Of a stretch of 35,592 nucleotides of DNA, positions 3,857-27,172 are shown one piece after another; position 1 is the stretch's first letter, and every line of letters begins with the position of its first letter. The stretch covers positions 1 through 35,592 of the forward strand of contig JAKLIA010000001.1 of the NCBI GenBank assembly GCA_022709865.1, given 5' to 3'. Under the pieces are notes generated by a model. That model saw only the letters and a list, made by a program, of their open reading frames with translations, searched no databases and was not told the DNA's origin. This DNA is from Patescibacteria group bacterium. Its GTDB lineage: Bacteria; Patescibacteriota; Minisyncoccia; Portnoybacterales; GWB1-42-6. The position numbers were made by a program, and so were the translations under genes.

Positions 3857-4535
3857 AATAAATAAAAACGCCAATAACCAGCCAGAGCCGGCTAAACCCC
3901 TAAAAAACATTTTAAATCTAAACGGCTTATTAAATCGGCCGTCTACCGACAATCGCTGGAAAAAATATCTTTGGCTGTTATTAGTTATGGTCGTAGTAGA
4001 GGGAGGCGCTATTGCTTGGCTTTATTTTCTAAAACCCGTCTCGCCTTATTTTAAGCTTCTGCCTCAAGACACTGCCGTTTCTTCGTATTTTAACCAAACT
4101 TCGCTTTTAGCCTTGATAAAGTCCCAAAAATCCCTTCAACCAGATTGGCCGCCGCTAGCCTGGAGCGCCAACGCGCTGAAAGATTTTTTCTCTTTAGCTA
4201 AAATTGAGCAGCCAGAACAACTATTAACCGCCTTTTCAGACCAAATGGCGCTGGCTATTTTGCCTCAAAACCCCGATACTCCAGCCACTTGGCTTATTTT
4301 ATCTTCAATTAAAGCTCCTTCTGATATCTTTTCCCAAACCAGAGACAAAACCGAAGAAGGATTAAAACAAAACTTCAATCTAATAAACGAGTCTTATCGC
4401 CAGATCAAGATATCTCAGGTTCAGTCTCTAAATAAAGACAAACAAAGCCTTTTTTATGCCGCGGCTAACGGCTATTTTATCCTTACTAATGACCTTTCTC
4501 TAGCCAAGTCGACAATTGATAGGATAATTAAATAA
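3837..4535 (+). CDS. Membrane-anchored hypothetical protein
   Basis: 232-aa ORF overlapping the upstream gene by 20 nt. One N-terminal TM helix (YLWLLLVMVVVEGGAIAWLYFL). The C-terminal ending (FYAAANGYFILTNDLSLAKSTIDRII) resembles the ending of the 997..2925 product (YAILNNKLIFATSKDSMLAMIDRLL). Confidence 0.5.
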   Translation: MQPTQIKINKNANNQPEPAKPLKNILNLNGLLNRPSTDNRWKKYLWLLLVMVVVEGGAIAWLYFLKPVSPYFKLLPQDTAVSSYFNQTSLLALIKSQKSLQPDWPPLAWSANALKDFFSLAKIEQPEQLLTAFSDQMALAILPQNPDTPATWLILSSIKAPSDIFSQTRDKTEEGLKQNFNLINESYRQIKISQVQSLNKDKQSLFYAAANGYFILTNDLSLAKSTIDRIIK

Positions 4536-4572
4536 AACTTAAAGGCCGAGCTGATAAATCAGCCCTGGAGAG

Positions 4573-4592
4573 TGTGGACAAAGTGTGGAAAA
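4573..4592. promoter_or_regulatory. Two tandem DnaA-box-like 9-mers (TGTGGACAA, TGTGGAAAA), 11-nt period
   Basis: Each 9-mer (4573..4581 and 4584..4592) differs at one position from TGTGGATAA, the reverse complement of the TTATCCACA consensus. They form the direct repeat AGTGTGGA-N3-AGTGTGGA and end 8 nt upstream of a -35 hexamer. Confidence 0.3.
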
Positions 4593-4599
4593 GGCGCGC

Positions 4600-4629
4600 T
4601 TGACGGGTTTTCGCTTAACCTGTTAAAAT
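4600..4629 (+). promoter_or_regulatory. Sigma-70-type promoter (TTGACG-N18-TAAAAT with TGn extended -10)
   Basis: TTGACG at 4600..4605 and TAAAAT at 4624..4629, preceded by TGT at 4621..4623 (TGnTAAAAT). It lies in a 450-nt non-coding gap. Confidence 0.45.
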
Positions 4630-4635
4630 AATGAC

Positions 4636-4914
4636 AGCTCCTTGAAACTGGCTAAATATTTATCAAATTGATCAGTTCTTTTTTTAGCCTATTAAAAAGG
4701 CATGGCTGGTCAAGGAGAGCTTTGTTTCCTTTTTGTGTCGCGTATAGTTTGCGGGCCGTATAAAAAAAAGGCCTTAGGACTTTCTTAATAGACGAGGTAC
4801 AAAGAGGCTGAGGGGCGTTAGCCCCATTAAATTATATTTTTTCGGGCTATTAACGCCCCTCAAACAGTTTACCCCTCAGCCAAGACACCCATCACCGTTA
4901 AGCGGTGTTTTTTT
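4636..4914 (+). ncRNA. Candidate ~280-nt structured RNA (independent sRNA or cis leader), family not recognised
   Basis: Bounded by the promoter at 4600..4629 and a hairpin plus T7 at 4893..4914. Long imperfect hairpin 4637..4720 (AGCTCCTTGA / TCAAGGAGAGCT, inner GGCTAAA / TTTAGCC). Mutually exclusive helices: GAGGGGCGTTA (4810..4820) pairs with TAACGCCCCTC (4851..4861), or GGCTGAGGGG (4806..4815) pairs with CCCCTCAGCC (4872..4881). No convincing ORF. Confidence 0.35.
4893..4914 (+). terminator. Weak intrinsic terminator (CACCG-TTAA-GCGGTG plus T7)
   Basis: A 5-6 bp stem followed by seven T (4908..4914). The stem is short, so efficiency is uncertain. Confidence 0.4.
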
Positions 4915-5399: not shown

Positions 5400-6941
5400 A
5401 TGCCTTCTCCTGCCAAAGTTTTCTCGGCTGCGGTTTTAGGCCTCTCTTGCCAGCCGATAGAGGTTGAAGTTGATATGTCTCCCGGGCTCCACACCTTTCA
5501 AATCGTTGGACTGCCCGATACCGCGGTTAACGAATCCAAGGAACGGGTTTCTTCCGCCATTAAAAACTCTGGGGCTTCGCCTCCGCACCACACTAACCGC
5601 CGAGTTATCGTTAACCTGGCTCCGGCCGATATTAAAAAAGAAGGGCCAAGCTACGATCTGCCCGTCGCCGTGGCTTTTTTATTAGCCTCAGAACAGCTTT
5701 TAGCCAGCGAGATCTCAAATAAAATATTTGTCGGCGAATTGTCGCTGGAAGGCAAACTTCGGCCAATCAGCGGCGCCCTGCCGATTGCCTTGATGGCGCG
5801 CGAAAGGGGATTTGGCGAGTTATTCGTGCCTCGCGCCAATGCGGCTGAAGCCGCCCTAATAAAAGAAATTAAAGTTTTCGGCCTAGACTCGCTGGAACAA
5901 TTATTTTTGCATTTGGAACAAAAAGAAGTTTTAGCACCCCAGCCGCCAACTGAGCTTAATTTCGATTTTGATGCTTTGGAAAGCGGCGCAGATATGGCCT
6001 ATATCCGCGGGCAAGAACAGGCCAAGCGGGCCTTGGAAATTGCCGCGGCCGGGCACCACAATATTTTAATGTCCGGCCCGCCCGGCACCGGTAAAACTTT
6101 GTTGGCGCGCACCCTGCCCACCATCTTGCCGCCCCTATCTTTTGCCGAAGCGCTGGAAACAACTAAGATCTTCAGTATCGCTGGCCGGCTTAATCAAGAG
6201 AAGCCCGTTCTGACACAGCGACCCTTCCGCAGCCCGCATCATACCGCTTCAGCCGTAGCGCTGGTTGGCGGCGGCAACCATCCTAGGCCCGGAGAAATCA
6301 CGCTGGCGCACCGGGGCGTGCTGTTTTTAGATGAACTGCCGGAGTTTCATCGGGATGTCCTGGAGGCCTTGCGCCAGCCCTTGGAAGATGGGATCATCAC
6401 AGTTTCCCGCGCTTCAGGGGCCCTGGAGTTCCCAGCCCAATTTATGCTAGTCGCCGCTATGAATCCTTGCCCTTGCGGCCACGCCACCAACCCCGACAAG
6501 CAATGCATCTGCTCTCCGGCTCAGGTCAGCAAATACAAACGCCGCATTTCCGGACCCTTGCTGGACCGCATTGACCTGCATATTGATGTGCCGGCTATTA
6601 AATATGAGAAGCTGGCTTCAGAAAAAGTAGGAGAAGATTCTCGCACTGTGAGAGCCCGCGTGCAAAATGCCCGCCAAAAACAGCAAGACAGGTTTAAAGA
6701 TGATAAAATCCAAACTAATTCAGAAATGAACCTGCAACAAATGAAAGCTTACTGCCAATTAGATAATGCAAGCCAGGAGATATTAAAAACTGCCGTACAA
6801 AATCTCAAATTATCCGCCCGAGCCTACCATCGAGTCCTAAAACTTGCCCGCACTATTGCCGACTTAGCCCTGGAAACCAATATCCAGCCGCAGCATTTAG
6901 CCGAAGCCCTGCAATACCGGCCCAGAGAAGATAGCTTTTAA
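5400..6941 (+). CDS. comM: YifB/ComM-family Mg-chelatase-like AAA+ ATPase
   Basis: 513 aa. N-terminal Lon-protease-like domain (VEVDMSPGLHTFQIVGLPDTAVNESKERV), Walker A (MSGPPGTGKTLLAR), Walker B (GVLFLDELPEF), Cys cluster (NPCPCGH...CICS) and ComM-type C-terminus (SARAYHRVLKLARTIADL). Confidence 0.9.
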   Translation: MPSPAKVFSAAVLGLSCQPIEVEVDMSPGLHTFQIVGLPDTAVNESKERVSSAIKNSGASPPHHTNRRVIVNLAPADIKKEGPSYDLPVAVAFLLASEQLLASEISNKIFVGELSLEGKLRPISGALPIALMARERGFGELFVPRANAAEAALIKEIKVFGLDSLEQLFLHLEQKEVLAPQPPTELNFDFDALESGADMAYIRGQEQAKRALEIAAAGHHNILMSGPPGTGKTLLARTLPTILPPLSFAEALETTKIFSIAGRLNQEKPVLTQRPFRSPHHTASAVALVGGGNHPRPGEITLAHRGVLFLDELPEFHRDVLEALRQPLEDGIITVSRASGALEFPAQFMLVAAMNPCPCGHATNPDKQCICSPAQVSKYKRRISGPLLDRIDLHIDVPAIKYEKLASEKVGEDSRTVRARVQNARQKQQDRFKDDKIQTNSEMNLQQMKAYCQLDNASQEILKTAVQNLKLSARAYHRVLKLARTIADLALETNIQPQHLAEALQYRPREDSF

Positions 6942-7018: not shown

Positions 7019-8179
7019 CTATTTAATAGTCTTGGCTCCCACCAGCGGGTTCTTGGCCCCTCGCACTTCAAAGTGCAAGTGGCATCCTGTCGAACGGCCG
7101 GTCGTTCCCATTAACATTATCAATTGGCCTTGGCCAACCTGCTGGCCCACTTCAGCTATCAGCCGAGAAGCATGGCCATAAACTGTCACCACGCCATTTG
7201 AATGCTTTATCATAATATACTTGCCATAACCAAAGTTCCATCCGATATCATCCGATAGTATAACTGTTCCCGCCGCGGCCGCATAAACCGGTGTTCCGCA
7301 GGCATTAGCCACGTCAACCGCATTATTGCCATGCAGCCGGCCCCAATCCTTACCTGTTGTCGGCGCTATCAGCCAGCTCCCGCTCAAAGATGTCCCGCTG
7401 GAATACTTTGGCGCTGTCACTTTAGGCGCAACATAAACAGTTGGCATTTCGCCATCCGGAATAATTATATAATTGCCAACCACTAATTTTGAATCCTCAT
7501 AAAGCCCATTAAAGGCCTTGATTTCGTCCTCCTTACCCTTATATTTTTTAGCTAAAGCGGCAATCGTGTCTTTAGCCGCGATCTTTACCCTGACGCCGTT
7601 AATCGGCAAAATGATCAAAGTTTGGCCCGGTTTAATATAATCGCCATCACGCAGGTTGTTGGCCGACAAAACCGTGTCCGTATTAATATTGAACTTAACC
7701 GCGATAGAAGAAGGAGTGTCTCCTTGCTGCACAACATAAGTTGTGGCTTCCTTTTGCATCCCAAAGAATGCGTTCCCGGACATTTCGGGAGATAGAAGCC
7801 CCGAACCTTCCATAATCGCCAAGTCTTGGTTTTCCAATTCATCGTCAGCTGAAAAGTCCACGCTCGCTTGAGCCGCTGGAATCGCTGCGGCTGAAAAGTC
7901 CAAAGCTCCGCCTAAAATACCCACATTTAAGTTAGCCGCCGTCTCTTCTATTAATTCTTCTCCGCCGCTTTGCCACCACTTATTGCCCACTGCTTCTTTT
8001 TTCTCTTTTATCGGCAGATCAAGATAATTCAAACCCCAGAAAGCAATAAAAATAACCGCAACAACAATCAGGCATCGCCTATGGCAAGCCATTGATTGAA
8101 GCGGTTTTTGAAGATTCCCTAAAATTACCTTTATTACCCGAAGCAAACGATGGTGTATTTTATCGGAATTATTATTCAT
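7019..8179 (-). CDS. LysM-domain M23 family peptidoglycan metalloendopeptidase
   Basis: N-terminal TM anchor, LysM (YVVQQGDTPSSIAVKFNINTDTVLSANNL...GQTLIILP) and a second LysM-like segment. M23 motifs are HGNNAVDV (HxxxD) and GRSTGCHLHFEV (HxH). Start placed at the ATG at 8179 (MNNNSDK); the ORF track extends to a TTG at 8209. Confidence 0.85.
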   Translation of the reverse strand: MNNNSDKIHHRLLRVIKVILGNLQKPLQSMACHRRCLIVVAVIFIAFWGLNYLDLPIKEKKEAVGNKWWQSGGEELIEETAANLNVGILGGALDFSAAAIPAAQASVDFSADDELENQDLAIMEGSGLLSPEMSGNAFFGMQKEATTYVVQQGDTPSSIAVKFNINTDTVLSANNLRDGDYIKPGQTLIILPINGVRVKIAAKDTIAALAKKYKGKEDEIKAFNGLYEDSKLVVGNYIIIPDGEMPTVYVAPKVTAPKYSSGTSLSGSWLIAPTTGKDWGRLHGNNAVDVANACGTPVYAAAAGTVILSDDIGWNFGYGKYIMIKHSNGVVTVYGHASRLIAEVGQQVGQGQLIMLMGTTGRSTGCHLHFEVRGAKNPLVGAKTIK

Positions 8180-8281
8180 TTTTCGCCTAAAGATAAGCCT
8201 TCTTACCAATTAAAAAACCCTCCCTTTAAGCACCTTCATGCTACTAAAAATCGGCTTTAGGGTCAATATTTTTATCTTTAT

Positions 8282-15460: not shown

Positions 15461-17482
15461 ATGATTAACTCTGGTCTATTTTTTAATAGCGCTTTCTCTC
15501 AACAACATTTTGCCCTTATTGTTCTTGTGGTTCTTCTGGCTAATTTAATTGTCGGCGGGGTTATGTTACCGTACCAGCAAAACCAACGAGCTCAGGCAAT
15601 CTGGTCTTCTCTCGCCGTTCAAATCCCCCAGTGGATAACAGAAGTATTAGATTATGTTTGGAGCGGAATTCAAGAAGCTTATACCGGCGCTCAAGCAGCA
15701 ATTTCTGCCGCTACAGCATTATGGGAAAAAGGAAATACTATTTTAAAAGAAGCAGCCAAGATTGCCTGGAACATTCTGAGAAAACAGCTGCTTAATATGA
15801 TAGTTAATGATATTGTTAAATGGATTCAAAACGGCACCACACCAAGGTTTGTGACTGATTGGCAAGGCTTTTTAACCAAAGCCGCCGACACAGCAGCTGG
15901 CAATTTTATAAGCCAATATCTTGGTATGGGCTTTTTATGCGACACCTTCGACTTTAAACTAAAAATTGCCCTATCAAAACCCCAAGAGTTTAATGAATCG
16001 GCCATTAAATGCACTCTTTCTAAAATAACCTCCAATATTAATAATTTCTTTAATAATTTTTCCAATGGCGGCTGGGCTGGCTGGATAGAGGTTTCTGAAA
16101 CCCAAAATAATATTATGGGGGCAACCCTGATGGTTCTAGACCAAAAATATGATGTAATGGCCAAAGCCCAAGAAGCGGCAAAAAATGAAGTATCCTCAGC
16201 TGCTGGGTTCGAAGGCGATAAAGTTTGTTCCCAAAGACAGTGTGTTGATCCTATGGTTGGCGAAACATACAAAGAGACCTATTCTGGCTCGTCTCTTGGC
16301 TGGACCAAAGAGCAGATGAGCTCTTCTTGCACCTGCTTGAAATGGGAAATTAGGACTCCGGGCCGAGTAGCCGGAGACGCTCTTTCGCAAGCTGCAGGCG
16401 TTGATATTGAAAATCTTATACAATCCAAAGAGTTTGCCGAATATGCCGCCGCGATTATTGATGCCGTCATTAATCGAGTTATCAAAGAAGGCGTAGCAGC
16501 GATGAAAACCGGAGCTGGCAGCTCTGGCGCATCGGGGCCAGGTATAACTACTGCGACACCTCCCATTGTGAACATCTCTCCGTATACCAACGCTTCAAAC
16601 GCCGGAGCAGAGATTAAGGCCCTCAATGCGCAACAAGAATTGCTAAAAGAAAACCTAAAAAACGTTATTACAGACTATCAAGCAAGCGTGAGCATCCTTG
16701 ATTCCATAAAAAACGCTCAAAATAATACTCTCGACAGCCTAAAAGACATTGTTCAAAATAATTGCACCGTACCTTCTGGAGTAACAATAACCCAAATCCC
16801 CAACACCCAAAGCACGTCCACCACCTGCGTTATAACTAACAATTACCGAGCTTGCCCTTGTACCGACACCCTTACAGAAAAAATTAAATTCACTATTCCG
16901 GGAACAGGGGAAGGTTTATTTTTAAAAACCACCAATCTACAATATAACACTATCACCGAATTTAATGTTTGCGAACTAAACCAAACAATAATTAAATACG
17001 AAAAAATATCCTCTTCCGTAGCCATTGAAAATGAAATAGCCTCCGTCAATAAAAAAATATCCGAACTTCAAGATACAATAACAAAAGTTGATATAGCGAT
17101 CAAAGACTCCCTAGATTATAAAAAAACGGCCGAAAATTATATGGCCCTCTATGAAGAATGGCAAAACAGCGGGGGATTAAATAATAATATCTCCACCAGC
17201 ACCGCGGAGACAGCCATGAATACTGCTAAGACCAAAGCAATTGCATCTAACCAAGCCTTACTTTCTAGCAGTTCTACCGATTTTAGCGACTTCACACAAG
17301 AAACAACTACAAAGTCTGGAAGAACAGCAACAGACCGACAAGAAATTATGACCAGAAAAGGATTCATACAAGATTGTGCTTATGCTCAATCTGGATCTTA
17401 TTATAAAGATCTCTGTAATGCTCAAACAGTTGAATTAACTTATAAAAACGCCCGGAATAGTTGCATGGGAGTAGACTTTTAG
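15461..17482 (+). CDS. Large Cys-containing extracytoplasmic protein, unknown family (operon gene 2)
   Basis: 673 aa with an N-terminal TM (FALIVLVVLLANLIVGGVMLPY). 14 Cys residues, several in CxC or Cx3C pairs. The C-terminal half has Asn/Thr/Ser-rich and coiled-coil-like segments. Confidence 0.6.
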   Translation: MINSGLFFNSAFSQQHFALIVLVVLLANLIVGGVMLPYQQNQRAQAIWSSLAVQIPQWITEVLDYVWSGIQEAYTGAQAAISAATALWEKGNTILKEAAKIAWNILRKQLLNMIVNDIVKWIQNGTTPRFVTDWQGFLTKAADTAAGNFISQYLGMGFLCDTFDFKLKIALSKPQEFNESAIKCTLSKITSNINNFFNNFSNGGWAGWIEVSETQNNIMGATLMVLDQKYDVMAKAQEAAKNEVSSAAGFEGDKVCSQRQCVDPMVGETYKETYSGSSLGWTKEQMSSSCTCLKWEIRTPGRVAGDALSQAAGVDIENLIQSKEFAEYAAAIIDAVINRVIKEGVAAMKTGAGSSGASGPGITTATPPIVNISPYTNASNAGAEIKALNAQQELLKENLKNVITDYQASVSILDSIKNAQNNTLDSLKDIVQNNCTVPSGVTITQIPNTQSTSTTCVITNNYRACPCTDTLTEKIKFTIPGTGEGLFLKTTNLQYNTITEFNVCELNQTIIKYEKISSSVAIENEIASVNKKISELQDTITKVDIAIKDSLDYKKTAENYMALYEEWQNSGGLNNNISTSTAETAMNTAKTKAIASNQALLSSSSTDFSDFTQETTTKSGRTATDRQEIMTRKGFIQDCAYAQSGSYYKDLCNAQTVELTYKNARNSCMGVDF

Positions 17483-17503
17483 TTTTTCTAGCGCCTTCCG
17501 TTT

Positions 17504-19345
17504 ATGCCAACCCTAACTAAAAACAAAAAAATCGCAATCGGTTTTATCTCGGTTTTTTTAGTTTTGGGTTCTATCTTTGTTTTTAATGTTTCCAACGCTC
17601 AAGCTGGCTTTCTTGATGCCATAACAAAGCCGGGGGATTTTGTAATGGAGGTGCTGGCGTGGGGAGCATATGGGATTTTATGGCTATTCAGCAAATTGAT
17701 AGCCATAGCAGCTTTTCTTTTGGAAACATCGTTCAAAATAGAGGACATCGGATTTACTAAGGCATCGATCGTAACTAACGGCTGGGAAGTAACCCGTGGG
17801 CTTTGCAATATGATATTTGCGCTTCTTTTATTATTAATGGCCTTTGACACAATTTTACAAACCGATAAGTTTCCGGTTAAGAGCATCCTACCCAAGTTAA
17901 TCATTGTTGCCCTAACAATTAATTTCAGCTTGATGCTCCTGGGCATTATTATTGATTTTTCCCAAATCCTCACGCGTTATTTCATCGATGCAGCCGGCGG
18001 TTCTTCCGGCAGCATTTCAGAACAATTAGCCAATAGCCTTAATATTGCCAAAGTTTTCCAAGTTAACACCAACCTCAACGACACTGCCAATATTCAAAAA
18101 AGTCTTGGTGGCGGCTCAGCTAGCCTGCTCCAAATATTTGGCACCCTGGTTTTTGGAATAGTAATCATATTAATTGCCACTTTTTCTTTAGCGGCCGGAG
18201 CAATTTTTATGCTCCTTCGATTAGTCTCTCTTTGGGTTTTATTGATTTTTGCCCCCATTGCCTGGATGGGCATGATAGCGCCCTTGCCGGGGCTAAAAGG
18301 TTTTATTGATGATTGGTGGAATAAGTTTTTTAAATGGACTTTCTTTGCGCCAATTTACGCCTTCTTTATTTATCTAGCTGTTTCCGTTGCCAGCGTTTCA
18401 AGCCTTTTTAATATTGGGTCATCGGCCACCCAAAAAGCTATAGGCAATGTATTTGTTAGTGATTTCTTATCGGATATAGGAAAGCTAATGCAGTATATAG
18501 TTGTTATTGCCCTGCTTATTATGGGCATCAAAACCGCCGAGCAAGTCGGGCTTTCAGGCGCTAACACCGTAGTTGGCTGGGGTAAAAAAGCGGGAAGCAA
18601 ACTAAGAAGTTTGCCTCAAAAAGCATTCGAGGCTACCGGCATTCCTGGAGGCGTCAAAGAGCGCTACGGAGAGCTCAAAGATAAATATCTGGCCGCTCCT
18701 CTAGCAAAGAGACAGGCGCAAGTAGCGACGGCTTTAGGCTCAAGCAGCGCCCTAGAAAAAAATATGAAAACCAGGGCTGGAGAATATGAGAAAAATAAAT
18801 CTTTGCCGGATATTCAAAGCCTGGCCAAAAGAGGGGACGCTTCAGCGGTCTATGCCCTAGCCAATATGGGAGAAATAGATGCAGCAACTTATCAAGCCTT
18901 CAGCTCTAACAACAAAAATGGGAAAATACAAAAATCAGTTGACGTAAAAGTTGGCAAAAAAAGAGCTGATCTCGTTGCTTTTAACAACGCCAAAGAGAAA
19001 GCCAAAAAGATCCTTAAAGAGAAAGCAACAGATCCTACTTATGCCGCAATTAAGGCCGCCAATCCAACATGGAGCGATAATGATATAGCGGAACAAATTG
19101 AAGACGACACCGTTGAACAAGAGATAGGGAAACTAACAACAGAAAAATTAACCGACCTAAAATGGTCCGAAATAGAAAAGAACTTGCTTTCTGGAAGTAA
19201 AGATAGGACCAGGATGGCATCGGCAACCTTTAAGTCTCTTAGCTCAATGATTAGCAAACCGGGGGTTCAAGCTGACCTTGCCAAAAGGTTAAGTCCAACC
19301 GATGCAGCAGCCATAAATAAATTAGTCGGCACAAATATAGTTTAA
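17504..19345 (+). CDS. Polytopic membrane protein, VirB6/TrbL-like by topology and context
   Basis: 613 aa. Signal peptide ending NAQA, then about 7 TM helices with a loop after TM1, then a ~250-aa Lys/Ala-rich hydrophilic C-terminal tail. The assignment rests on architecture and position next to VirB3/VirB4-like genes, not on a diagnostic motif. Confidence 0.45.
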   Translation: MPTLTKNKKIAIGFISVFLVLGSIFVFNVSNAQAGFLDAITKPGDFVMEVLAWGAYGILWLFSKLIAIAAFLLETSFKIEDIGFTKASIVTNGWEVTRGLCNMIFALLLLLMAFDTILQTDKFPVKSILPKLIIVALTINFSLMLLGIIIDFSQILTRYFIDAAGGSSGSISEQLANSLNIAKVFQVNTNLNDTANIQKSLGGGSASLLQIFGTLVFGIVIILIATFSLAAGAIFMLLRLVSLWVLLIFAPIAWMGMIAPLPGLKGFIDDWWNKFFKWTFFAPIYAFFIYLAVSVASVSSLFNIGSSATQKAIGNVFVSDFLSDIGKLMQYIVVIALLIMGIKTAEQVGLSGANTVVGWGKKAGSKLRSLPQKAFEATGIPGGVKERYGELKDKYLAAPLAKRQAQVATALGSSSALEKNMKTRAGEYEKNKSLPDIQSLAKRGDASAVYALANMGEIDAATYQAFSSNNKNGKIQKSVDVKVGKKRADLVAFNNAKEKAKKILKEKATDPTYAAIKAANPTWSDNDIAEQIEDDTVEQEIGKLTTEKLTDLKWSEIEKNLLSGSKDRTRMASATFKSLSSMISKPGVQADLAKRLSPTDAAAINKLVGTNIV

Positions 19346-19349
19346 CCTA

Positions 19350-20633
19350 ATGATAAAAGATTCTTTTATAAAATCTCTCCAAGAGTTTCAAGATGCCAAG
19401 AATTATAATCCTTGGCTTGTTTCTACTACAAAAAACCCGAGTGATGAAACGCCAGAAAAAGTAGAAGAAAGGCAAAAAAAGTTTTTGCAAATACCAGAAT
19501 CCGCACAAAACATATTAGCTTCACAAGATACAGCTAATATTATAAAAAAAATTAGCCAAGACCTTAAACTAACGCTTTGGCAAGCCGCTGAGATATCCCG
19601 ATCGGTCAGGGCTTATTATTTTAGAGAAATGGCCCCAGCAGAGATTATTTCTTCCTTAACAATAAACGCCGACATAGACACAAAGCGAGCCGAAGAGATT
19701 TACCAAAGGCTAGCCACAGAGATTTTTAATGCCCGCCTCGCCAGCCAAAGAAAATTGATCTATTTGCCTATAGATAAGGCCTTAACTGAATATCCCAAGA
19801 TAAAGAAACAAGCGATTAGCTCAAACCCAATTAAGATCCGCGGTTTCATCGATTTGGTCGCGCCTTCGGTTGAAAACTGGCTTCAAGATTATAAAGAGAC
19901 CGCTGGAGCTCAAGACCATGAGGCCGACGAAAGAGCGGAATATCTTTTTAACAGTCAAAACACCAAAAACCTAGCACAGCAAGACCGGCAACAGCTTTCT
20001 AAAGTAATTGAAGCCGTCGACGAGAACTCTACTATTGGGATAGATCCGGATAACCAACTAATCATTTTTGAACGGGCAGAAACAGAAAGCGAAGAAAAAC
20101 AGATAAAACCACAGCCAAGCATCCAGGCGGTTTTTAGCCAAAAAACTCTTCGCCAAATAGCTAAGGATAACAAAGATTTGCTAAACCAAAACCTAACTAG
20201 CGCCCCGATAAAAATTGCCGATTTTGAGCAACCGGTCCGCCCCACAATTAAAAATTGGCTGGTGGATTATGTAAAAATTAAAGGGGCCGGGCACCACGAA
20301 TCCCTGGAACGCGGCGATTATTTATTTAGTAACCCCAACGCCAAGCAATTATCAGAAACAGAGCGAAACTTAGTCTCGGCCATATTAAAAGCCTATGATG
20401 ATGATCTGCCTTTGCCTGTTAATGCTCAAGATCAAACTATTCTATTAGAAAATATAATAACAGAGAAAACAATTGCCCAGGCGCCTATTTCGGCCACCTC
20501 CTTAAATACTCCCAGCGGCTACCGAGAACCAATTGCCAAAGAAGATTTAATCGGGCCGCTAAAGAACCAAACACCACCGAAAAACACGCCCAAATTAAGC
20601 GGCAATATCATTGATTTAAAAGATATACAATAA
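19350..20633 (+). CDS. Soluble hypothetical protein with an internal ~85-aa duplication (operon gene 4)
   Basis: 427 aa with no TM. Repeat A covers aa ~157-241 (PIKIRGFIDLVAPSVENWLQDYKETAGAQDHEADERAEYLFNSQNTKNL...). Repeat B covers aa ~283-367 (PIKIADFEQPVRPTIKNWLVDYVKIKGAGHHESLERGDYLFSNPNAKQL...). Confidence 0.6.
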   Translation: MIKDSFIKSLQEFQDAKNYNPWLVSTTKNPSDETPEKVEERQKKFLQIPESAQNILASQDTANIIKKISQDLKLTLWQAAEISRSVRAYYFREMAPAEIISSLTINADIDTKRAEEIYQRLATEIFNARLASQRKLIYLPIDKALTEYPKIKKQAISSNPIKIRGFIDLVAPSVENWLQDYKETAGAQDHEADERAEYLFNSQNTKNLAQQDRQQLSKVIEAVDENSTIGIDPDNQLIIFERAETESEEKQIKPQPSIQAVFSQKTLRQIAKDNKDLLNQNLTSAPIKIADFEQPVRPTIKNWLVDYVKIKGAGHHESLERGDYLFSNPNAKQLSETERNLVSAILKAYDDDLPLPVNAQDQTILLENIITEKTIAQAPISATSLNTPSGYREPIAKEDLIGPLKNQTPPKNTPKLSGNIIDLKDIQ

Positions 20634-20636
20634 TTT

Positions 20637-20921
20637 ATGCGCTTTAATGTTCCGCAATTCGTTGATATTGAAGATACCATTATTGGGCCGCTAACGCTTA
20701 AACAATTTTTTCTGGTGATTGGCGGGGGAGTTGTGATCGCTATCTTGTGGTATATGTTCAAGCTTTGGTTTGTTTTTTTATTAGGCGTGCCTTTGGCGCT
20801 GGTTATTATAGCGATAGTCTTTGTTAAGATAGGTGGCCGGCCCATTACCCAAATTTTTACTTCTTGGCTGAATTATTGGATCAAACCCAGATTTTATACT
20901 TGGAAAAAAAGTAATAAATAA
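20637..20921 (+). CDS. PrgI/VirB3-like small membrane protein
   Basis: 94 aa. N-terminus MRFNVPQFVDIEDTIIGPLTLKQFF is followed by two TM helices. This is the pattern of PrgI-family (VirB3-analogue) proteins that precede VirB4 in Gram-positive-type T4SS. Confidence 0.6.
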   Translation: MRFNVPQFVDIEDTIIGPLTLKQFFLVIGGGVVIAILWYMFKLWFVFLLGVPLALVIIAIVFVKIGGRPITQIFTSWLNYWIKPRFYTWKKSNK

Positions 20922-20932
20922 TAATTTATTTT

Positions 20933-21562
20933 ATGGCTGCTCCGGTGCAACAAAAAATTGTGGTTGAAGAAATAAAAGAGGGGGTTGTTATCTTAAAAGG
21001 CGGCGATTTGCGCGGCGTTTTAATGGCTTCTTCTATTAACTTTTCTTTAAAATCCACCGATGAACAAGATTCTTTGATCTTTAAATACCAAAGTTTTTTA
21101 AACTCCCTTGATTTTCCTATTCAGATATTAATGGCCTCTCGGCATTTGAACATCGAAGAATACTTGGCTTCTGTTGAACAAAAAAGAAAAGAGCAAGACA
21201 ACGAATTATTGCAAATCCAAATCGCCGAATATTATGATTTTATAAAAAACTTAGTTGAGGTCGGCAATATTATGGACCAATCTTTTTTTGTTGTTGTGCC
21301 CTTGGCGCGCGTAGAAAAAAAAGAATCTGGAATAATTGAAAAATTAGGGATATTCCAAAGCTCAAAACCCAAAGGAAACGAAGAAACCAAGAGCTTTGAC
21401 GAATTAAGAGTTCAGCTTTGGCAAAGGCTAGAGTATGTGGGTTCGGGCCTGGCCGGCATAGGTATAAAGTCCACCATCTTAAATACAGAAGAATTAACCC
21501 AACTTTTCTATCGAATGTATAATATGGGCTCAAAAAATGTGCCCACCACCCCAAAAGAATAA
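20933..21562 (+). CDS. Hypothetical protein resembling a stand-alone VirB4 N-terminal-type domain
   Basis: 209 aa. The segment IVVEEIKEGVVILKGGDLRGVLMASSINFSLKSTDEQDSLIFKYQSFLNSLDFPIQILMASRHLNIEEYL follows the same pattern as the N-terminus of VirB4/TraE-type ATPases. It is in the same reading frame as the downstream VirB4 gene, separated by two stop codons. Confidence 0.45.
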   Translation: MAAPVQQKIVVEEIKEGVVILKGGDLRGVLMASSINFSLKSTDEQDSLIFKYQSFLNSLDFPIQILMASRHLNIEEYLASVEQKRKEQDNELLQIQIAEYYDFIKNLVEVGNIMDQSFFVVVPLARVEKKESGIIEKLGIFQSSKPKGNEETKSFDELRVQLWQRLEYVGSGLAGIGIKSTILNTEELTQLFYRMYNMGSKNVPTTPKE

Positions 21563-21592: not shown

Positions 21593-23404
21593 ATGCCATT
21601 TGATTTTTTCAAAAAACCAAACCCCGCTATAAATAATCCAGCAGTAAATCTGTCTTCGCCTTTTGAGGGCTCGCCGGAAACCAGCGGCCCCACAATAAAA
21701 GATTTGATCTCGCCAGCGGGCATTAAAATAGAATCTAGCTATCTGCAAGTTGACCAAAAACTTGCCCGCACCCTTTTTGTTTTTACTTACCCCCGGTATT
21801 TGTCCACCAATTGGTTCTCGCCGATCATGTCCCTGGATAAAGAGTTCAATGTCTCCATGTTCGTGCACCCGATAGAAACCCCTTGGATAATGAACCAGCT
21901 AAAGAAAAAAGTGGTTCAAGTCCAATCACAAATCAATGAACGCCAAGAAAAGGGGCAAGTGAGAGACCCGATGCTAGAAACAGCTTTAAATGATATTGAA
22001 GCTCTCCGGGATAATTTATTGCAGGGCAATGAAAAGTTTTTTAAGTTTGGCCTTTATATCACTATTTTTGGCGATAATGAGAAAGAATTAAATGACCTGG
22101 AAAATGAGATGCGCTCTCTCCTTGAAGGCCGCATGGTCTATATCAAGCCCGCCTCCTTCCAGCAAGAACAGGGCTTTAATTCCACTTTGCCAATGGCTAA
22201 AGACGAGCTACAGATCCACACTTCAATGAATACCGGGCCCCTCTCCAGTACCTTTCCCTTTGTCTCGGTCAATCTATCTGATAACAAAGGAGTTTTCTAC
22301 GGCATTAACCGGCATAATAATTCCTTGATCATTTTTGACCGTTTTAGTCTGGAGAACGCCAACGCCGTGGTTTTTGCCAAATCCGGCTCTGGCAAAAGCT
22401 ACACGGTTAAATTAGAGGTTTTGCGTTCTTTAATGATGGGAACGGACGTTATTATTATTGACCCGGAAAACGAATACCAATATCTAGCTGAAACCGTCGG
22501 CGGCTCTTTTATAAAGGTCTCTCTTAATTCCCCAAACCACTTAAACCCCTTTGACCTGCCAATTCCAGCCAAAGGAGAGCAGCCCGGAGACGTTTTGCGC
22601 TCTACCATAATTACCTTGGTAGGATTGTTGCGTATAATGCTTGGGGGCATTTCAGCAGCCGAAGATTCTATTATTGACCGCGCTATCAGCGAAACTTATG
22701 CTTCACGGGATATCACTCCGCAATCGGATTTTTCTAAGATCACTCCGCCGCTGCTTTCTGATCTTTATTCCATTTTAAAAAATACCGAAGGTGGCGCTTC
22801 ATTGGCTTCGCGCCTGGAACGTTTTATTACCGGGTCGTACTCGGGGCTATTTAATCAGCACACCAATGTTGAATTAAAAAATAAATTAATTTGTTTCTCT
22901 ATCCGCGATATGGAAGATGAGTTGCGGCCTATCGCCATGTACGTAGTGCTGCACTATATCTGGAACACCATTCGAGGCGAGCTTAAACGGCGAATCCTGG
23001 TGGTGGACGAAGCCTGGGTTATGATGCGCCACGATGATGCCGCCTCTTTCCTTTTTGGCATTGCTAAGCGTTGCCGTAAATATTATTTAGGGCTAACTAC
23101 TATCACACAAGACGTCGCTGACTTTATGAACTCGCCCTATGGCAAACCGATCGTCACCAACTCCTCGATGCAGATCCTTCTGCGCCAATCGCCGGCCACT
23201 ATTGATATTATTCAAAAAACCTTCAACCTAACCGAGCAAGAAAAATATTTATTGCTGGAATGCGGAGTGGGGGAGGGAATATTTTTTGCTGGGCTGCAGC
23301 ATGCCGCAATAAAAATTACCGCTTCTTATACCGAAGACCAGATCATAACTTCCGATCCGCGACAATTATTAAAAATCGAGAAAGCTAAAGAAGAATTAGC
23401 TTAA
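21593..23404 (+). CDS. virB4: VirB4/TraE/PrgJ-type T4SS ATPase
   Basis: 603 aa. N-terminal domain ISPAGIKIESSYLQVDQKLARTLFVFTYPRYLSTNWFSPIM, Walker A VVFAKSGSGKSYTVK (around nt 22384), DPENEY, Walker B RRILVVDEAW (around nt 23000) and GLTTITQDVADF. Confidence 0.8.
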   Translation: MPFDFFKKPNPAINNPAVNLSSPFEGSPETSGPTIKDLISPAGIKIESSYLQVDQKLARTLFVFTYPRYLSTNWFSPIMSLDKEFNVSMFVHPIETPWIMNQLKKKVVQVQSQINERQEKGQVRDPMLETALNDIEALRDNLLQGNEKFFKFGLYITIFGDNEKELNDLENEMRSLLEGRMVYIKPASFQQEQGFNSTLPMAKDELQIHTSMNTGPLSSTFPFVSVNLSDNKGVFYGINRHNNSLIIFDRFSLENANAVVFAKSGSGKSYTVKLEVLRSLMMGTDVIIIDPENEYQYLAETVGGSFIKVSLNSPNHLNPFDLPIPAKGEQPGDVLRSTIITLVGLLRIMLGGISAAEDSIIDRAISETYASRDITPQSDFSKITPPLLSDLYSILKNTEGGASLASRLERFITGSYSGLFNQHTNVELKNKLICFSIRDMEDELRPIAMYVVLHYIWNTIRGELKRRILVVDEAWVMMRHDDAASFLFGIAKRCRKYYLGLTTITQDVADFMNSPYGKPIVTNSSMQILLRQSPATIDIIQKTFNLTEQEKYLLLECGVGEGIFFAGLQHAAIKITASYTEDQIITSDPRQLLKIEKAKEELA

Positions 23405-23409
23405 AACTT

Positions 23410-23757
23410 ATGCCGGAAACAGATAATAAACAAACGAACGAAAAACAATCCACCCCCTTCCCCTCAGGCATGCTTTGTTTGGCTATTTTATTTGATCTGA
23501 TCGGCTTGGTTCCTATTCTTAATTTTTTTACTGAAACTCTGGCCGGATTAATCTTTGGCATGTGGCAATCTTCTTATAACCCCAAGCTTGATCCGGTTCT
23601 TTCTTTCTTTATAGCCAAAATAATTGATGTTGCCTCGCTTGGGATCTTGCCCAGCAACACCGGCATTGTTGTTTATTCTTATCTAAAAAAGAAAGCAGCC
23701 AGCGCGGCACAAACTCCTGCGGGAATGGCCCTGGCCAATAAAATGCTAAAAAGCTAA
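23410..23757 (+). CDS. Small membrane protein (operon gene 8), unknown function
   Basis: 115 aa with 2-3 hydrophobic helices (MLCLAILFDLIGLVPILNFF, LAGLIFGMW, IIDVASLGILP...IVVYSYL). 5-nt gap from virB4. Confidence 0.5.
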   Translation: MPETDNKQTNEKQSTPFPSGMLCLAILFDLIGLVPILNFFTETLAGLIFGMWQSSYNPKLDPVLSFFIAKIIDVASLGILPSNTGIVVYSYLKKKAASAAQTPAGMALANKMLKS

Positions 23758-23761
23758 AAAT

Positions 23762-24511
23762 ATGCTCAATAAAATTAAAAAATCAATTCTCATAAATCTC
23801 TTGCTGTTAATCGCACTAATTAGCATTGGACTTTATATTGCCGAGCAAACACCCAGCGCCAACGCCGGCACTAATGATTTTTTAATGACCTGGTCCAGCA
23901 ATTCTTATATCCCGCCGCAATACGCCGGCAAGGCTTTGCCTACCATTGGAACAACAGTAGAAATAGTGGTTTTGCCTGTTAAAAAACTTTCTCAAGACGC
24001 AGACGCTTTTACCTATCTTTGGGTGTTAGATGGTAAACAAGCCTATTCTTCCCAGGGGAAAGGAAAAAGCTCTTTCCAATTCCAAATTACCAAATGGGAC
24101 GGGGATAAACATGAAGTCGAAGCTCGGGTGTTAGACGCACAAGAAAATATGCTTTGGCGGGGATTTTTAACTATAAAAGTCCGGCAGCCGCAAATATTAT
24201 TTAACACGCCAAACAACAACTATGCTGTTTCCGAATCTATGTCGGTGAACACAGGAAAAGAACTGACAATTTATGCTATTCCTTTATTTTTCCGCGCCAA
24301 CAAGATTTCAGATCTGGTTTTTAATTGGCAATTAAATGAACAAACCCTAACTCCCGCGCTAGGGGAGCAAAACCCGGACAAGCTGATCATCAAGGTTCCG
24401 GCTGGCACTTTATCTGGTTCTGTTTTTAAAAATCTGTCTTTGTCTATTCAAAATCCGCTAGATGCCCTGCAGCAAATATCCGCCGGCTTAAACATAGAAA
24501 TAAAACAATAA
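23762..24511 (+). CDS. Membrane-anchored secreted protein with two beta-sandwich-like repeats (operon gene 9)
   Basis: 249 aa with an N-terminal TM (ILINLLLLIALISIGLYIA). Two ~90-aa segments share an FxYxWxLDG-like pattern (FTYLWVLDGKQ and LVFNWQLNEQT). Confidence 0.5.
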   Translation: MLNKIKKSILINLLLLIALISIGLYIAEQTPSANAGTNDFLMTWSSNSYIPPQYAGKALPTIGTTVEIVVLPVKKLSQDADAFTYLWVLDGKQAYSSQGKGKSSFQFQITKWDGDKHEVEARVLDAQENMLWRGFLTIKVRQPQILFNTPNNNYAVSESMSVNTGKELTIYAIPLFFRANKISDLVFNWQLNEQTLTPALGEQNPDKLIIKVPAGTLSGSVFKNLSLSIQNPLDALQQISAGLNIEIKQ

Positions 24512-24515: not shown

Positions 24516-25388
24516 TTGCCTCATTTTTTCTCAAAAAATAAATTGTTTCTTTTCTGTTTGGCAGGCTGGTTTCTGTTCTTTTTCGCTAGCAATGTCTTGG
24601 CGGCCGGCTATGAGCTAGAAGTTAAGCTCCCCGGCATGCCCGATTCTGTTTCCGACCCGGGGGCATACATGAGGTATCTTTTTATCTTCGGCGTATCTTT
24701 AGCTGGATTCCTGGCAGTAGGCATGATCATCTATGGCGGAGTAAAATATATGCTAGCAGCTTCTGTGGGCTCAACCCAAGATGCCAAAGATAAGATCTTA
24801 GGGGCTTTGGGTGGAGTCGCCTTGATACTTTGTTCGTATTTATTGCTCTATACTATTGATCCGAGCTTAACGAATCTGTCGCCCCTGCCGGTAAGCCAAA
24901 TTATGGCCGCTGATGTGGAAGCTCCCAGCCCTCAAGACTCCGGCCTAACCGAAGCCACCACTGCAACCGCGACTGGAACAGGAGAGCTTGCTTGTAAAAC
25001 CAATAAAATATGCCAAGACATAGAAAGTGGAAAAGTAAGCTCTACTTTGACCAACAGCCTCCGCTCTTTGCCGGTCGAGGTCACCGTTACCGAAACAACC
25101 GGCAGCCACGGTTGCGCTTCCTCTGATAGCTGTGTTTCTGGCGCTGCCTGCGGCACTTCAACGCATTGCAGCGGCAACGCAGCTGATATCAGGGTCTCTA
25201 ATTTAACTACTGAACAAAAAAAAGAAGTAATGCAAAGTCTTAGCCAAAATAAATGCGTTGACCAGCTTTTTTATTCCGGGTTTCCGGAATATTGCAAGGC
25301 GGGCGGCGGGCAGAATGCCTCAAAAAGTAAAAGCTGCTCCGCCCATTCCGACCATATTCACTACAGCGTTAAATCCGGCTGCACTTAA
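24516..25388 (+). CDS. VirB2/TrbC-like pilin hairpin fused to a Cys-rich M15/LAS-type peptidoglycan-hydrolase-like domain
   Basis: TTG start; there is no in-frame ATG before the conserved module. Signal peptide ...ASNVLAA. Two TM helices flank a short polar loop (YLFIFGVSLAGFLAVGMIIYGGV - KYMLAASVGSTQDAKDKI - LGALGGVALILCSYLLLYTI). The C-terminal ~165 aa have 12 Cys and the motifs STHCSGNAAD (SxHxxGxAxD, nt 25158..25187) and DHIH (nt 25350..25361). Confidence 0.65.
   Translation: MPHFFSKNKLFLFCLAGWFLFFFASNVLAAGYELEVKLPGMPDSVSDPGAYMRYLFIFGVSLAGFLAVGMIIYGGVKYMLAASVGSTQDAKDKILGALGGVALILCSYLLLYTIDPSLTNLSPLPVSQIMAADVEAPSPQDSGLTEATTATATGTGELACKTNKICQDIESGKVSSTLTNSLRSLPVEVTVTETTGSHGCASSDSCVSGAACGTSTHCSGNAADIRVSNLTTEQKKEVMQSLSQNKCVDQLFYSGFPEYCKAGGGQNASKSKSCSAHSDHIHYSVKSGCT
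24630..24884 (+). repeat. Copy 1 of a 255-nt pilin-module direct repeat
   Basis: Aligns without gaps to 25505..25759 (offset 875 nt) with 7 mismatches, all synonymous. The encoded 85 aa are identical. Confidence 0.9.
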
Positions 25389-25399
25389 ATTAAAAAATT

Positions 25400-25978
25400 A
25401 TGAGCCCTACTCTTAATAAAAAAATCATTGCCTTATCCTTCGCCGGCTTATTTTTACTGTTGGCTGCTCCTGCTTGCTACGCCTATAAAGTAGAGGTTAG
25501 TTTGCCCGGCATGCCCGATTCCGTCTCCGACCCGGGGGCATACATGAGGTATCTTTTTATCTTCGGCGTATCTTTAGCCGGATTCCTGGCAGTAGGCATG
25601 ATCATCTATGGCGGAGTGAAATACATGCTAGCAGCTTCTGTGGGCTCAACCCAAGACGCCAAAGATAAGATCTTAGGGGCTTTGGGTGGAGTCGCCTTAA
25701 TACTTTGTTCGTATTTATTGCTCTATACTATTGATCCGAGCTTAACGAATCTGTCGCCCAACATTAAACCCGTAGGTAATATTTCCTCTCCGTCAGAAAC
25801 CCCCCGTTATGGCATAACCACCACAGAAACAACAATTACTCAATACTTTGATTCTACTGCAGTAAACTATAATACAGCAGAAAAATGCGAAGCAATCGGA
25901 AAAAGCTCCTATGGAAGCCGTTTTGTCAGTTCCACTTTTAATAGTCAAAATTGCATAATTACAATAAAAAAATTATAG
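25400..25978 (+). CDS. VirB2/TrbC-like pilin paralog with a short unrelated C-terminal domain
   Basis: 192 aa with a signal peptide ending ACYA. The 85-aa pilin module (PGMPDSV...SLTNLSP) is identical to the upstream paralog. It is followed by a ~70-aa Thr-rich tail with 2 Cys (GITTTETTITQYFDS...CEAIGK...NCIITIKKL). Confidence 0.65.
   Translation: MSPTLNKKIIALSFAGLFLLLAAPACYAYKVEVSLPGMPDSVSDPGAYMRYLFIFGVSLAGFLAVGMIIYGGVKYMLAASVGSTQDAKDKILGALGGVALILCSYLLLYTIDPSLTNLSPNIKPVGNISSPSETPRYGITTTETTITQYFDSTAVNYNTAEKCEAIGKSSYGSRFVSSTFNSQNCIITIKKL
25505..25759 (+). repeat. Copy 2 of the 255-nt pilin-module direct repeat
   Basis: See copy 1: about 97% nucleotide identity and 100% amino-acid identity. 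Confidence 0.9.
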
Positions 25979-25993: not shown

Positions 25994-27172
25994 ATGAATA
26001 CAAAAAAAATATTGATCATCGCTTCAATTTTATTGGTTCTGTCATTGGGCGCTCTTTTAGTTTATAATTTATTTTTTAAACCTTCTTCCACCGAAACAAC
26101 GGAAAACGGCAGCACCCTGCCAACCTCCAGCGGAGGAAGCAACGGCTCTAACTCCTCTTTGCCAAACAGCAGTAATTCTAGCGGCTCAGGCAGCCAAACA
26201 GACTCAAAGATCAGGGTTCTTAGCAAAGAGCCGGTTTTATCACCAACCATGGGCGAAGACGGCAAAACTATTAAATATTATGTCAGTTCAAATGGCAATG
26301 TTTTTGAATCAGACTTTCTGGGCGCCAACATTAAAAAAATCTCTTCTGTTGCCTTAAACGGCCTATTGAAAGCCGTCTGGTCGCCAGATAAAACTAAAGT
26401 GATCGGCTTTTTCTCTGATAACAATAAAATTAAAAAATATTTCTACGATTATAACAATAAGCAGTCTTCTTTGCTTAACGAAAAAATGGGAAACGTTGCC
26501 TGGTCGCCGGATAGCAAGCGCATTGCTTATCAATTTGTTGACGCAACCACCGGCCAGCACAATATCAGTATAGCCAACCCTGATGGCTCTAATTGGAAAA
26601 ATATTTTCAAAACTCGCCTGGACGATTTGATCGTGGAATGGCCGGGAAAAGAAAAAATATCTATTAGGCAGGCTCCCAGCGGCTTAGCCCAAGGCATACT
26701 TTATGCCATCAATTCCGAAACCGGCGACTTCAATAAAGTTTTAAGCGATATTTTTGGTTTAAATGTTAAGTGGTCTCCCAAGGCTGATAAAATCCTTTAT
26801 TCAGCCACCAACGACCAAGGAAAAAATCCTAAACTATATCTAACCGACAGCACCGGCACTAACCAAAAAGACCTGAATCTTTCCGGCTTGATAGACAAGT
26901 GCGTTTGGAGCACCGATGACCGGACTATTTTTTGCGCCTTGCCAAAAGAACTTTCCGCTAATGCCACTTGGCCAGATGATTATTATAAGGGTATTGTCAT
27001 CCTAGCGGACGACTTCTATAAAATCAACCTCGAGACTAACGAAAAAACAAAAATCCTGGGCTCCACCAGCCAGATCAGCTTTGATGCCCAGGAATTAATT
27101 ATTTCGCCAAAAGAAGACTACCTATTTTTTGTTAACAAGCACGATGGCCTGCTTTATAGCCTAAAAATATAA
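25994..27172 (+). CDS. Membrane-anchored TolB-like (PD40/WD40-like) beta-propeller protein; last gene of the operon
   Basis: 392 aa. N-terminal TM, then a Ser/Gly/Asn-rich linker (SSGGSNGSNSSLPNSSNSSGSGSQ). Repeated (V/A)WSPD-type blades follow (AVWSPDKTKV, VAWSPDSKRIAY, VKWSPKADKILY, CVWSTDDRTIF). Confidence 0.65.
   Translation: MNTKKILIIASILLVLSLGALLVYNLFFKPSSTETTENGSTLPTSSGGSNGSNSSLPNSSNSSGSGSQTDSKIRVLSKEPVLSPTMGEDGKTIKYYVSSNGNVFESDFLGANIKKISSVALNGLLKAVWSPDKTKVIGFFSDNNKIKKYFYDYNNKQSSLLNEKMGNVAWSPDSKRIAYQFVDATTGQHNISIANPDGSNWKNIFKTRLDDLIVEWPGKEKISIRQAPSGLAQGILYAINSETGDFNKVLSDIFGLNVKWSPKADKILYSATNDQGKNPKLYLTDSTGTNQKDLNLSGLIDKCVWSTDDRTIFCALPKELSANATWPDDYYKGIVILADDFYKINLETNEKTKILGSTSQISFDAQELIISPKEDYLFFVNKHDGLLYSLKI

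Follow-up and report, generated by a model that had tools for sequence, protein, structure and literature searches.

Two adjacent genes in a 35,592-nt stretch of DNA from a Patescibacteria group bacterium (contig JAKLIA010000001.1 of assembly GCA_022709865.1, positions 1 to 35,592; hereafter the window) encode proteins in which the same two-helix module, assigned by profile comparison to the VirB2-like pilins of type IV secretion systems (T4SSs), is followed by unrelated C-terminal parts (the cargo). Gene conversion and purifying selection keep these modules near-identical, and in natural populations of related strains the modules act as direct repeats. Recombination at these repeats swaps, removes or partly overwrites the segment that they enclose, which consists of cargo, spacer and the signal peptide of the next gene.

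The core repeat (24630-24884 against 25505-25759) aligns without gaps at an offset of 875 nt, with 7 mismatches in 255 positions (24647, 24650, 24704, 24743, 24749, 24782 and 24824 in copy 1). All seven are synonymous transitions at third codon positions, so that the 85 encoded residues are identical in the two copies; the probability of seven synonymous changes out of seven, if changes were random, is 5.8e-5, or 6.8e-4 when only transitions are considered. The alignment and its seven synonymous mismatches are exactly as an earlier note, made from the letters of the window, had described, and the pair is also present in three independent assemblies. No mismatch to the window was found in the JGI 189-kb contig L030 (6873 nt, spanning both copies and carrying the same seven differences), the NCBI metagenome-assembled genome (MAG) contig L005 (10668 nt) or the ENA contig L006 (921 nt). 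The longest exact run common to both copies is 60 nt, and therefore an assembler working at k=141 cannot confuse them. Thus, the repeat in the window is real and is no artefact of assembly. The NCBI contig (DAOTEY010000001.1, 173 kb, identical to the window) begins at 25311, between the module copies and toward the 3' end of gene 1, which suggests that this assembly broke at the repeat. The parts of the two genes are listed here.

24516..25388, + strand: gene 1, an open reading frame (ORF) of 290 amino acids (aa) with a TTG start, called as the same protein in the JGI and NCBI assemblies; predicted layout of signal peptide, VirB2-like T4SS_pilin module, linker and Cys-rich LAS-type peptidase domain
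24516..24605, + strand: signal peptide of gene 1, ~aa 1-30, with a hydrophobic helix at residues 4-25 in the AlphaFold2 (AF2) model; cleavage after ...NVLA(A) was judged by eye, not computed
24605..24884, + strand: module copy 1 (core 24630-24884), predicted to fold as a transmembrane hairpin of two long helices
24885..24968, + strand: linker of gene 1, Pro/Thr/Ala-rich, gappy and variable in the alignment, with model confidence (pLDDT) <50 at residues 122-133 and 152-154
24969..25385, + strand: peptidase-like domain of gene 1, with 10 Cys, indicated by the AF2 model, Foldseek and profile matches
25400..25978, + strand: gene 2, an ORF of 192 aa with signal peptide, identical module and a 72-aa Thr-rich tail containing two Cys
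25480..25759, + strand: module copy 2 (core 25505-25759), recognized as the repeat and by PF18895 (E 2.9e-3 on the whole protein)
25760..25975, + strand: tail of gene 2, of no recognizable family

Independent repeat finding recovered the same pair in a longer form (24605-24884 and 25480-25759, 280 nt, 94% identity). The 3' edge is sharp, identity ending at 24885 directly after ...TNLSP. The 5' edge is gradual, with approximately 25 nt (24605-24629) that are 64% identical and include non-synonymous changes. The abrupt stop previously claimed for both sides therefore holds for the 3' edge and has to be given up for the 5' edge. The signal peptides of the two genes differ, with faint similarity only, and the C-terminal parts are unrelated, as had been stated, measuring 163 aa with ten Cys in gene 1 and 72 Thr-rich aa with two Cys in gene 2. 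The exact gene 2 protein is present on eight contigs, the largest of 376 kb.

The module as a member of the T4SS_pilin family

At the family level, profile evidence clearly places the module among the VirB2-like T4SS pilins (PF18895). The module alone matches this model with an E value of 4.6e-4, and the model matches 11 of the 12 close homologues (best E 3.9e-7) and 61 of 94 extended relatives. In the reverse direction, a profile built from the module recovers PF18895-annotated proteins of ~130 aa with E values of 1e-30 to 1e-6; an exhaustive search with it matches 27,968 cluster representatives, and stand-alone members of ~130 aa predominate in the family. With a five-sequence module alignment, 14 GTDB loci were recovered, one of them close. 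The AF2 model of gene 1 contains helices at residues 4-25 (the signal peptide), 48-82 and 87-114, the last two forming the hairpin of the ~90-aa module. Three results weigh against this assignment. The scores in the window itself lie below the PF18895 gathering cut-off of 26.6 bits (18.0 for gene 1, 18.1 for gene 2 and 20.7 for the module alone); the module profile found no solved pilin in the PDB at a significant level, the best being 7jsv at E 1.6; and Foldseek with the full-length gene 1 model returned generic helical hairpins and no solved VirB2 or TraA pilin. The pilin-like module of the earlier note is to be understood as a VirB2-like T4SS pilin and not as a type IV pilus pilin.

Some relatives are 'poly-pilins' (P0107, P0110 and P0113; L050 1232-2536), in which two to four tandem modules precede one C-terminal SLT lytic transglycosylase domain. 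Each module of these proteins begins with a (Y/F)-x-L-E-x-P-L motif.

Homogenization of the modules and recombination between them

The comparison drew on nine syntenic loci of other genomes and on a further 25 loci of metagenomic origin. Near-identical tandem tracts are present in L003 (~240 nt, no mismatch), L029 (~258 nt, no mismatch) and L012 (~262 nt, one mismatch), in addition to the 255 nt with seven mismatches in the window, and every such tract extends from close to the mature N-terminus as far as the junction of module and cargo. In these four lineages the synonymous divergence (dS) between the modules of one genome is 0.09-0.16. Protein identity within genomes is 0.84-0.97; between genomes, the median dS is 1.7 (saturated) and the median protein identity 0.62. 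The nearest neighbor of each module copy is the paralogue in its own genome, except in the closely related L003/L009 lineage pair. The M15-like cargo, meanwhile, is orthologous across genomes (41-93% identity), and the gene carrying it is syntenic with the second module gene in at least eight lineages. Since the cargo is orthologous while the modules match within each genome, the paralogues are old and their identity has been renewed lineage by lineage, which in old paralogues implies recurrent gene conversion, with purifying selection between the events. That the selection acts on the module protein follows from the seven synonymous differences out of seven and from the low ratio of non-synonymous to synonymous divergence (dN/dS). 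The earlier note had offered either duplication or gene conversion, or else very strong purifying selection; conversion and selection both act, and it is the recent duplication that falls away.

Homogenization is not universal, and this weighs against a need for it. Paralogues in L001, L008/9 and L027 show a within-genome dS of 0.3-1.0, and the array modules of more distant lineages are 39-68% identical, which agrees with the divergence of published arrays (25% identity on average, 54% at most; PMC12102498), so that identity of the modules may not be required. Because the distant arrays have diverged, homogenization is a feature of this clade.

The consequences of the repeats are seen directly in natural populations. 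L008 and L009 represent the same strain-level locus, with flanks that are 99.1% and 99.9% identical. No base differs between them up to and including the final base of repeat 1, nor from the point where the core of repeat 2 begins; between the repeats L008 has a YkuD cargo and L009 an M15-like cargo, each with its own spacer and next signal peptide. The M15 allele was found in four contigs (L009, L010, L011 and L037) and the YkuD allele in three (L008, L039 and L044), while one contig (L040) has a deletion allele in which the cassette is lost and a hybrid R1/R2 repeat remains; the flanks of the three alleles are 99-100% identical, most of them 100%. In the population of L001, contig L032 has lost the M15 cargo, and the signal peptide of gene A is followed there by a module that is a hybrid of A and B and by the SLT cargo. 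Furthermore, gene B of L034 has a tract of at least 115 nt of A-type inside a B-type module, which is not present in L001 although the 5' flank is 100% identical; compared with L001, this module runs from B-type through A-type to C-type or other sequence. Cassette exchange, deletion and partial conversion at the repeats are thus all observed, with breakpoints at or inside the repeats between otherwise identical flanks. The earlier note had regarded the repeat as a substrate for recombination that could delete or swap the cargo, and had advised looking for such variants in population data; the swapped, deleted and part-converted alleles bear it out. In L007 and L034, a 100%-identical 5' flank is joined to a 3' flank of 72-86% identity, and these two contigs are treated as uncertain, since such junctions may stem either from a chimera or from recombination with a lineage that has diverged.

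The carried domains and their proposed role

The cargo of gene 1 is quite probably a divergent, disulfide-rich zinc peptidase of the LAS type that acts on peptidoglycan peptides, a reading drawn from motif, profile and model comparisons. Full-length orthologues of gene 1 are 42-70% identical, and residues ~150-290 are conserved in 14 of them, including the ten Cys. T-E-T, H198-G-C, D204 and S215-x-H217-C-x-x-x-A-x-D224 are invariant, and H277, H280 and H282 nearly so (H280 and H282 at least 90% conserved in the alignment of 15 sequences); the LAS zinc-ligand pattern, H-x6-D (H217, D224) followed by a distal HxH, is therefore present. Profile searches of the PDB return almost only Hedgehog N-domains (E 0.3-1), aligned over SLHYEGRAVDI, the signature in these matches being S-x-H-x-x-G-x-A-x-D. 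The domain was modeled alone because the helical hairpin had diluted the full-length Foldseek search, and the resulting AF2 model (pLDDT 90, predicted template-modeling score (pTM) 0.85) finds proteins of the LAS fold at almost every one of the first ~45 ranks in a Foldseek search of the PDB, namely MepA (E 0.067), Hedgehog-N, VldE, the Streptomyces Zn DD-peptidase 1lbu, LdcB, Ply500 and ChiX. The strength of the individual matches weighs against the assignment. Peptidase_M15_3 scores 16 bits on gene 1 (E 0.014), below its cut-off of 23.2, and the best Foldseek E value is 0.067 with TM scores of 0.3-0.46. The lines of evidence are weak singly and none is significant alone, yet they are concordant. 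What had earlier been called a Cys-rich, enzyme-like domain is thereby kept as such and refined to a most likely LAS-type zinc peptidase.

Matches of this domain to polyketide synthases in a single-sequence phmmer search of the PDB were spurious and were dropped in favor of profile searches. The C-terminal domain of gene A in L012 was tried as a member of the M15-like family and left out, its alignment being unconvincing. The M15-like gene of L034 (4344-4645; GW2011_GWA2_43_9b, P0011) has an in-frame internal deletion of ~46 aa, by which the enzyme domain loses its helical N-terminal portion while the metal-ligand motifs are retained. Pfam found no SLT/lysozyme-like or CHAP/NlpC-P60 domain in the window proteins, so that none of them counts as VirB1-like by such a domain.

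The tail of gene 2 has no Pfam match at E<=10. Over its first ~28 residues it is similar to the tail encoded by L001_C, the third gene of the array in L001 (BLASTP E 2e-4 over 29 aa).

A census of cargo was made by a Pfam scan of the 94 closest cluster representatives that have one N-terminal module and an extension. It gave SLT in seven, YkuD in three, lysozyme-like in two, and M23, CHAP, NlpC/P60 and SLT_2 in one each, the only other match being one weak DUF3792 (E 6e-4); the remaining relatives have mostly small Cys-rich tails. By domain assignment, then, every Pfam-recognized cargo among these relatives is a predicted peptidoglycan enzyme, as is the SLT cargo of gene B in L001. A common module with alternative cargo, the design proposed in the earlier note along with a survey of related genomes for further fusions, is accordingly supported, the same module being fused to M15/LAS-like, SLT, YkuD, lysozyme-like, M23, CHAP and NlpC/P60 domains as well as to Cys-rich tails.

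A second Cys-rich cargo type (L012 4996-5913; P0139) ends in ...GGHFHCNF and contains DGQHASSCH...GDF, and may be another very divergent metallopeptidase of the H...D / HxH kind. In L026 (6867-7650), what follows the M15-like gene is annotated as an SLT protein of 120 aa that has no module. A near-identical population contig, L042 (1206-1442), has a second module copy directly after gene A, and the second gene of L026 may be truncated or miscalled.

An extracytoplasmic position of the cargo is indicated by the signal peptide, the even number of helices, the many Cys and the cell-wall enzyme domains. Each protein would then consist of three parts: its own signal peptide, a common ~90-aa module of two transmembrane helices, and a differing C-terminal part outside the membrane, which in gene 1 would be a zinc peptidase, most likely cutting the peptide stems of peptidoglycan, and in gene 2 a short tail. 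We consider it likely, on the whole, that these are T4SS_pilin paralogues with a conversion-homogenized module and recombining cargo that belong to the same assembly. The paralogues would need the same module because both enter this assembly, be it the T4SS pilus or a membrane platform, and the enzyme-bearing subunits may be minority members that bring a wall-cutting activity to the secretion apparatus. This would amount to a built-in VirB1-like function, by which the cell's own wall, that of a host bacterium, or both could be opened.

A stronger form of this explanation, which we regard as unlikely, holds that identical modules let enzyme-bearing and short-tailed subunits co-polymerize, so that the pilus would display strain-specific wall enzymes (LAS peptidase, YkuD, SLT and others) toward the wall of the host bacterium, and recombination at the repeats would shuffle the cassettes and with them the host range. 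No VirB2 pilus is known to have a 160-aa globular domain on its subunits, and incorporation into the filament would be unprecedented, which weighs against this form and also against the pilus as the common assembly. At the other extreme, the module may be a membrane anchor only, which tethers wall enzymes beside the T4SS without forming a polymer, its identity being a neutral by-product of conversion. In favor of this, all recognized cargo domains are peptidoglycan enzymes; a bulky domain on every pilus subunit would be sterically difficult; diverged paralogous modules (dS 0.3-1.0) are tolerated in some genomes; the N-terminal transmembrane tether of the VirB1-like hydrolases of Gram-positive bacteria is a parallel; and most Patescibacteria with VirB2-like genes are without a separate VirB1 (PMC12102498). 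However, the family is annotated as a T4SS pilin and its stand-alone members predominate, in gene 2 and many relatives the same module is followed by nothing more than a small, non-enzymatic tail, and the wholly synonymous differences and low dN/dS indicate selection on the sequence of the module and not on mere hydrophobicity. We therefore rate a mere anchor as rather unlikely, and keep to paralogues of one assembly.

Two further alternatives concern the repeat itself. Identity of 97% over 255 nt would fit a young duplicate, produced by tandem duplication of the module, or of the whole gene followed by replacement of the tail, with no ongoing conversion. But the synteny of cargo gene and second module gene in at least eight lineages goes with saturated synonymous divergence of the modules, the near-identical pair of each lineage would need an independent and identically bounded duplication every time, and the mosaic tract in gene B of L034, compared with L001, is direct evidence of conversion. 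On the strength of the orthologous cargo and the lineage-specific identical tracts we reject recent duplication, which is very improbable. The other alternative is that the repeat or the variant alleles are collapsed or chimeric joins in short-read metagenomes, a danger of which the earlier note had also warned. The start of the NCBI MAG contig between the module copies, the shortness of some variant contigs (L040, 1.3 kb; L007, 2.2 kb) and the flank joins of L007 and L034, which could be chimeric, would agree with it. Against it stand the absence from the window pair of any exact run longer than 60 nt, well short of the assembly k, the mismatch-free reproduction of the pair in the JGI, NCBI and ENA assemblies, one contig spanning both copies, and the recurrence of the M15 and YkuD alleles, each in three to four independent samples, where the breakpoints are exact and the flanks to either side 100% identical. 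An artefact is thus also rejected, as likewise very improbable.

The surrounding locus and comparison with known systems

The module genes are embedded in genes of a predicted T4SS, listed here with their neighbors.

20637-20921, + strand: PrgI/VirB3-like gene (Pfam PrgI, 1.5e-8)
20933-21562, + strand: TrsD/TraC-like gene (NCBIfam TrsD, 1.4e-6)
21593-23404, + strand: VirB4 ATPase (VirB4-like CD1110 family, E 3.5e-118)
23410..24511, + strand: two conserved unannotated genes, for a 115-aa membrane protein and a 249-aa secreted protein
25994..27172, + strand: TolB-like beta-propeller (NCBIfam TolB propeller, 1.1e-10), which by synteny consistently comes after the array of modules

VirB4 ends 1.1 kb upstream of the module genes, and the T4SS gene order is kept in nine related loci. 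The pair of genes for 115 and 249 aa always lies between virB4 and the module genes, with order and sizes kept in L001, L003, L008/9 and L026-L029. Past the TolB-like propeller there are two Wzy_C genes and a polysaccharide flippase, then khpB-like, yidC, rnpA, dnaA and the start of dnaN; the distance downstream from the module genes is 6-8 kb for rnpA/yidC/dnaA and about 8 kb for dnaA itself. Because this gene content and the proximity of dnaA match published Patescibacteria loci (PMC12102498), the locus is assigned, by its annotation, to the chromosomal, origin-proximal, MPF-FATA-like T4SSs of Patescibacteria. The sources given for homologues indicate a bacterium of the Parcubacteria (Portnoybacteria, Paceibacteria type).

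VirB4 appears as two genes here and in all related loci, for a TrsD/TraC-like protein of 209 aa that resembles the N-terminal part of VirB4 models, and an ATPase of 603 aa. Such a pairing of TrsD and VirB4 has already been reported for Patescibacteria (PMC12102498), and the arrangement in the window agrees with it. Six large ORFs (642, 314, 232, 673, 613 and 427 aa) at 997-4535 and 15461-20633 on the + strand were matched by neither Pfam nor NCBIfam. The final three in this list lie immediately before PrgI, are conserved in the source contig as well, and are candidates for the missing VirB6/VirB8-like parts of the T4SS. A LysM + Peptidase_M23 protein is encoded at 7019-8209 on the - strand, 12 kb upstream of the T4SS genes, so that the genome also has a predicted free-standing cell-wall peptidase of the LAS clan. 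No RNA family was found in the window by Rfam, and no relaxase was seen in it.

Palindromic intergenic repeats of ~100-136 nt occur between the T4SS genes of related loci, at 1695-1800, 4323-4419 and 14309-14411 in L001, 4741-4854 in L003, and 4559-4682, 6571-6665 and 7830-7965 in L009. They often adjoin small inserted genes (23S_rRNA_IVP/Avd-like, PDDEXK_3). Repeats and inserted genes of this kind are both absent from the window.

In the one Patescibacterium that has been tested genetically, epibiotic life depends on the T4SS and on the pilin array belonging to it (PMC10633639). In one large clade, it appears, the module of this pilin family is a carrier of extracellular domains. Strains that are otherwise identical differ in the domain carried, as a consequence of recombination between carriers whose identity is maintained. 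Taken together, the carrier role, the peptidoglycan cargo and its polymorphism point to the cell wall, either the cell's own or that of the host, as the target of the apparatus. If the display of enzymes on the pilus were true, recombination would retune the types of host wall that an epibiotic Patescibacterium can breach, and the array would be a host-range locus with a logic comparable to the swapping of phage receptor-binding proteins. The locus is also an unusually clean bacterial case of concerted evolution that is restricted to a single domain within multi-domain paralogues, and in which both conversion tracts and the products of unequal crossover have been caught segregating in natural populations. 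Fusion of a pilin module to a peptidoglycan enzyme, homogenization at the nucleotide level and segregating cargo alleles were not found in the literature searched, which was limited in coverage.

Origin-proximal T4SS loci with arrays of VirB2-like pilins (PF18895 / PF04956) have already been described in Patescibacteria (PMC12102498), and in Southlakia epibionticum ML1 an array of six pilins is essential (PMC10633639; reviewed in PMC12857230). The present locus is like these in the family of its pilins, its MPF-FATA-like VirB4/PrgI/TrsD genes, its position near dnaA and its tandem pilins downstream of virB4. However, the members of published arrays are small pilins with a within-array identity of 25% on average and 54% at most (PMC12102498), whereas the modules described here are 84-100% identical, homogenized at the nucleotide level, and joined to C-terminal domains of 70-300 aa, several of them predicted cell-wall enzymes.

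The T4SSs of Gram-positive bacteria have VirB1-like hydrolases, such as PrgK, TraG of pIP501 and TcpG (cited in PMC12102498). Like these, gene 1 would place a wall-cutting domain in a T4SS locus behind an N-terminal hydrophobic membrane tether, and its relatives carry SLT, CHAP, NlpC/P60 and M23 domains. In contrast, the anchor here is a two-helix module of the pilin family that is common to a non-enzymatic paralogue, and the enzyme of the window is LAS/M15-like and not SLT or CHAP. With the LAS metallopeptidases (MepA of M74; VanX/VanY/LdcB of M15; the Streptomyces Zn DD-peptidase; Ply500; Hedgehog-N) the domain has in common the H-x6-D and C-terminal His motifs and the S-x-H-x-x-G-x-A-x-D-I signature, and its predicted fold retrieves LAS proteins first. 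Unlike them, it is very divergent, has ten conserved Cys and an extra invariant T-E-T...H-G-C...D segment, and has so far been found only fused to the pilin module.

Pilin variation at pilE/pilS of Neisseria and the swapping of C-terminal toxins in Rhs/CdiA proteins also combine a conserved 5' part with a 3' part that is replaced by recombination, giving strain-variable alleles. Unlike those systems, the present one has no silent donor cassettes, the repeats being the 5' modules of neighboring expressed genes, and conversion homogenizes the constant part rather than diversifying the variable one.

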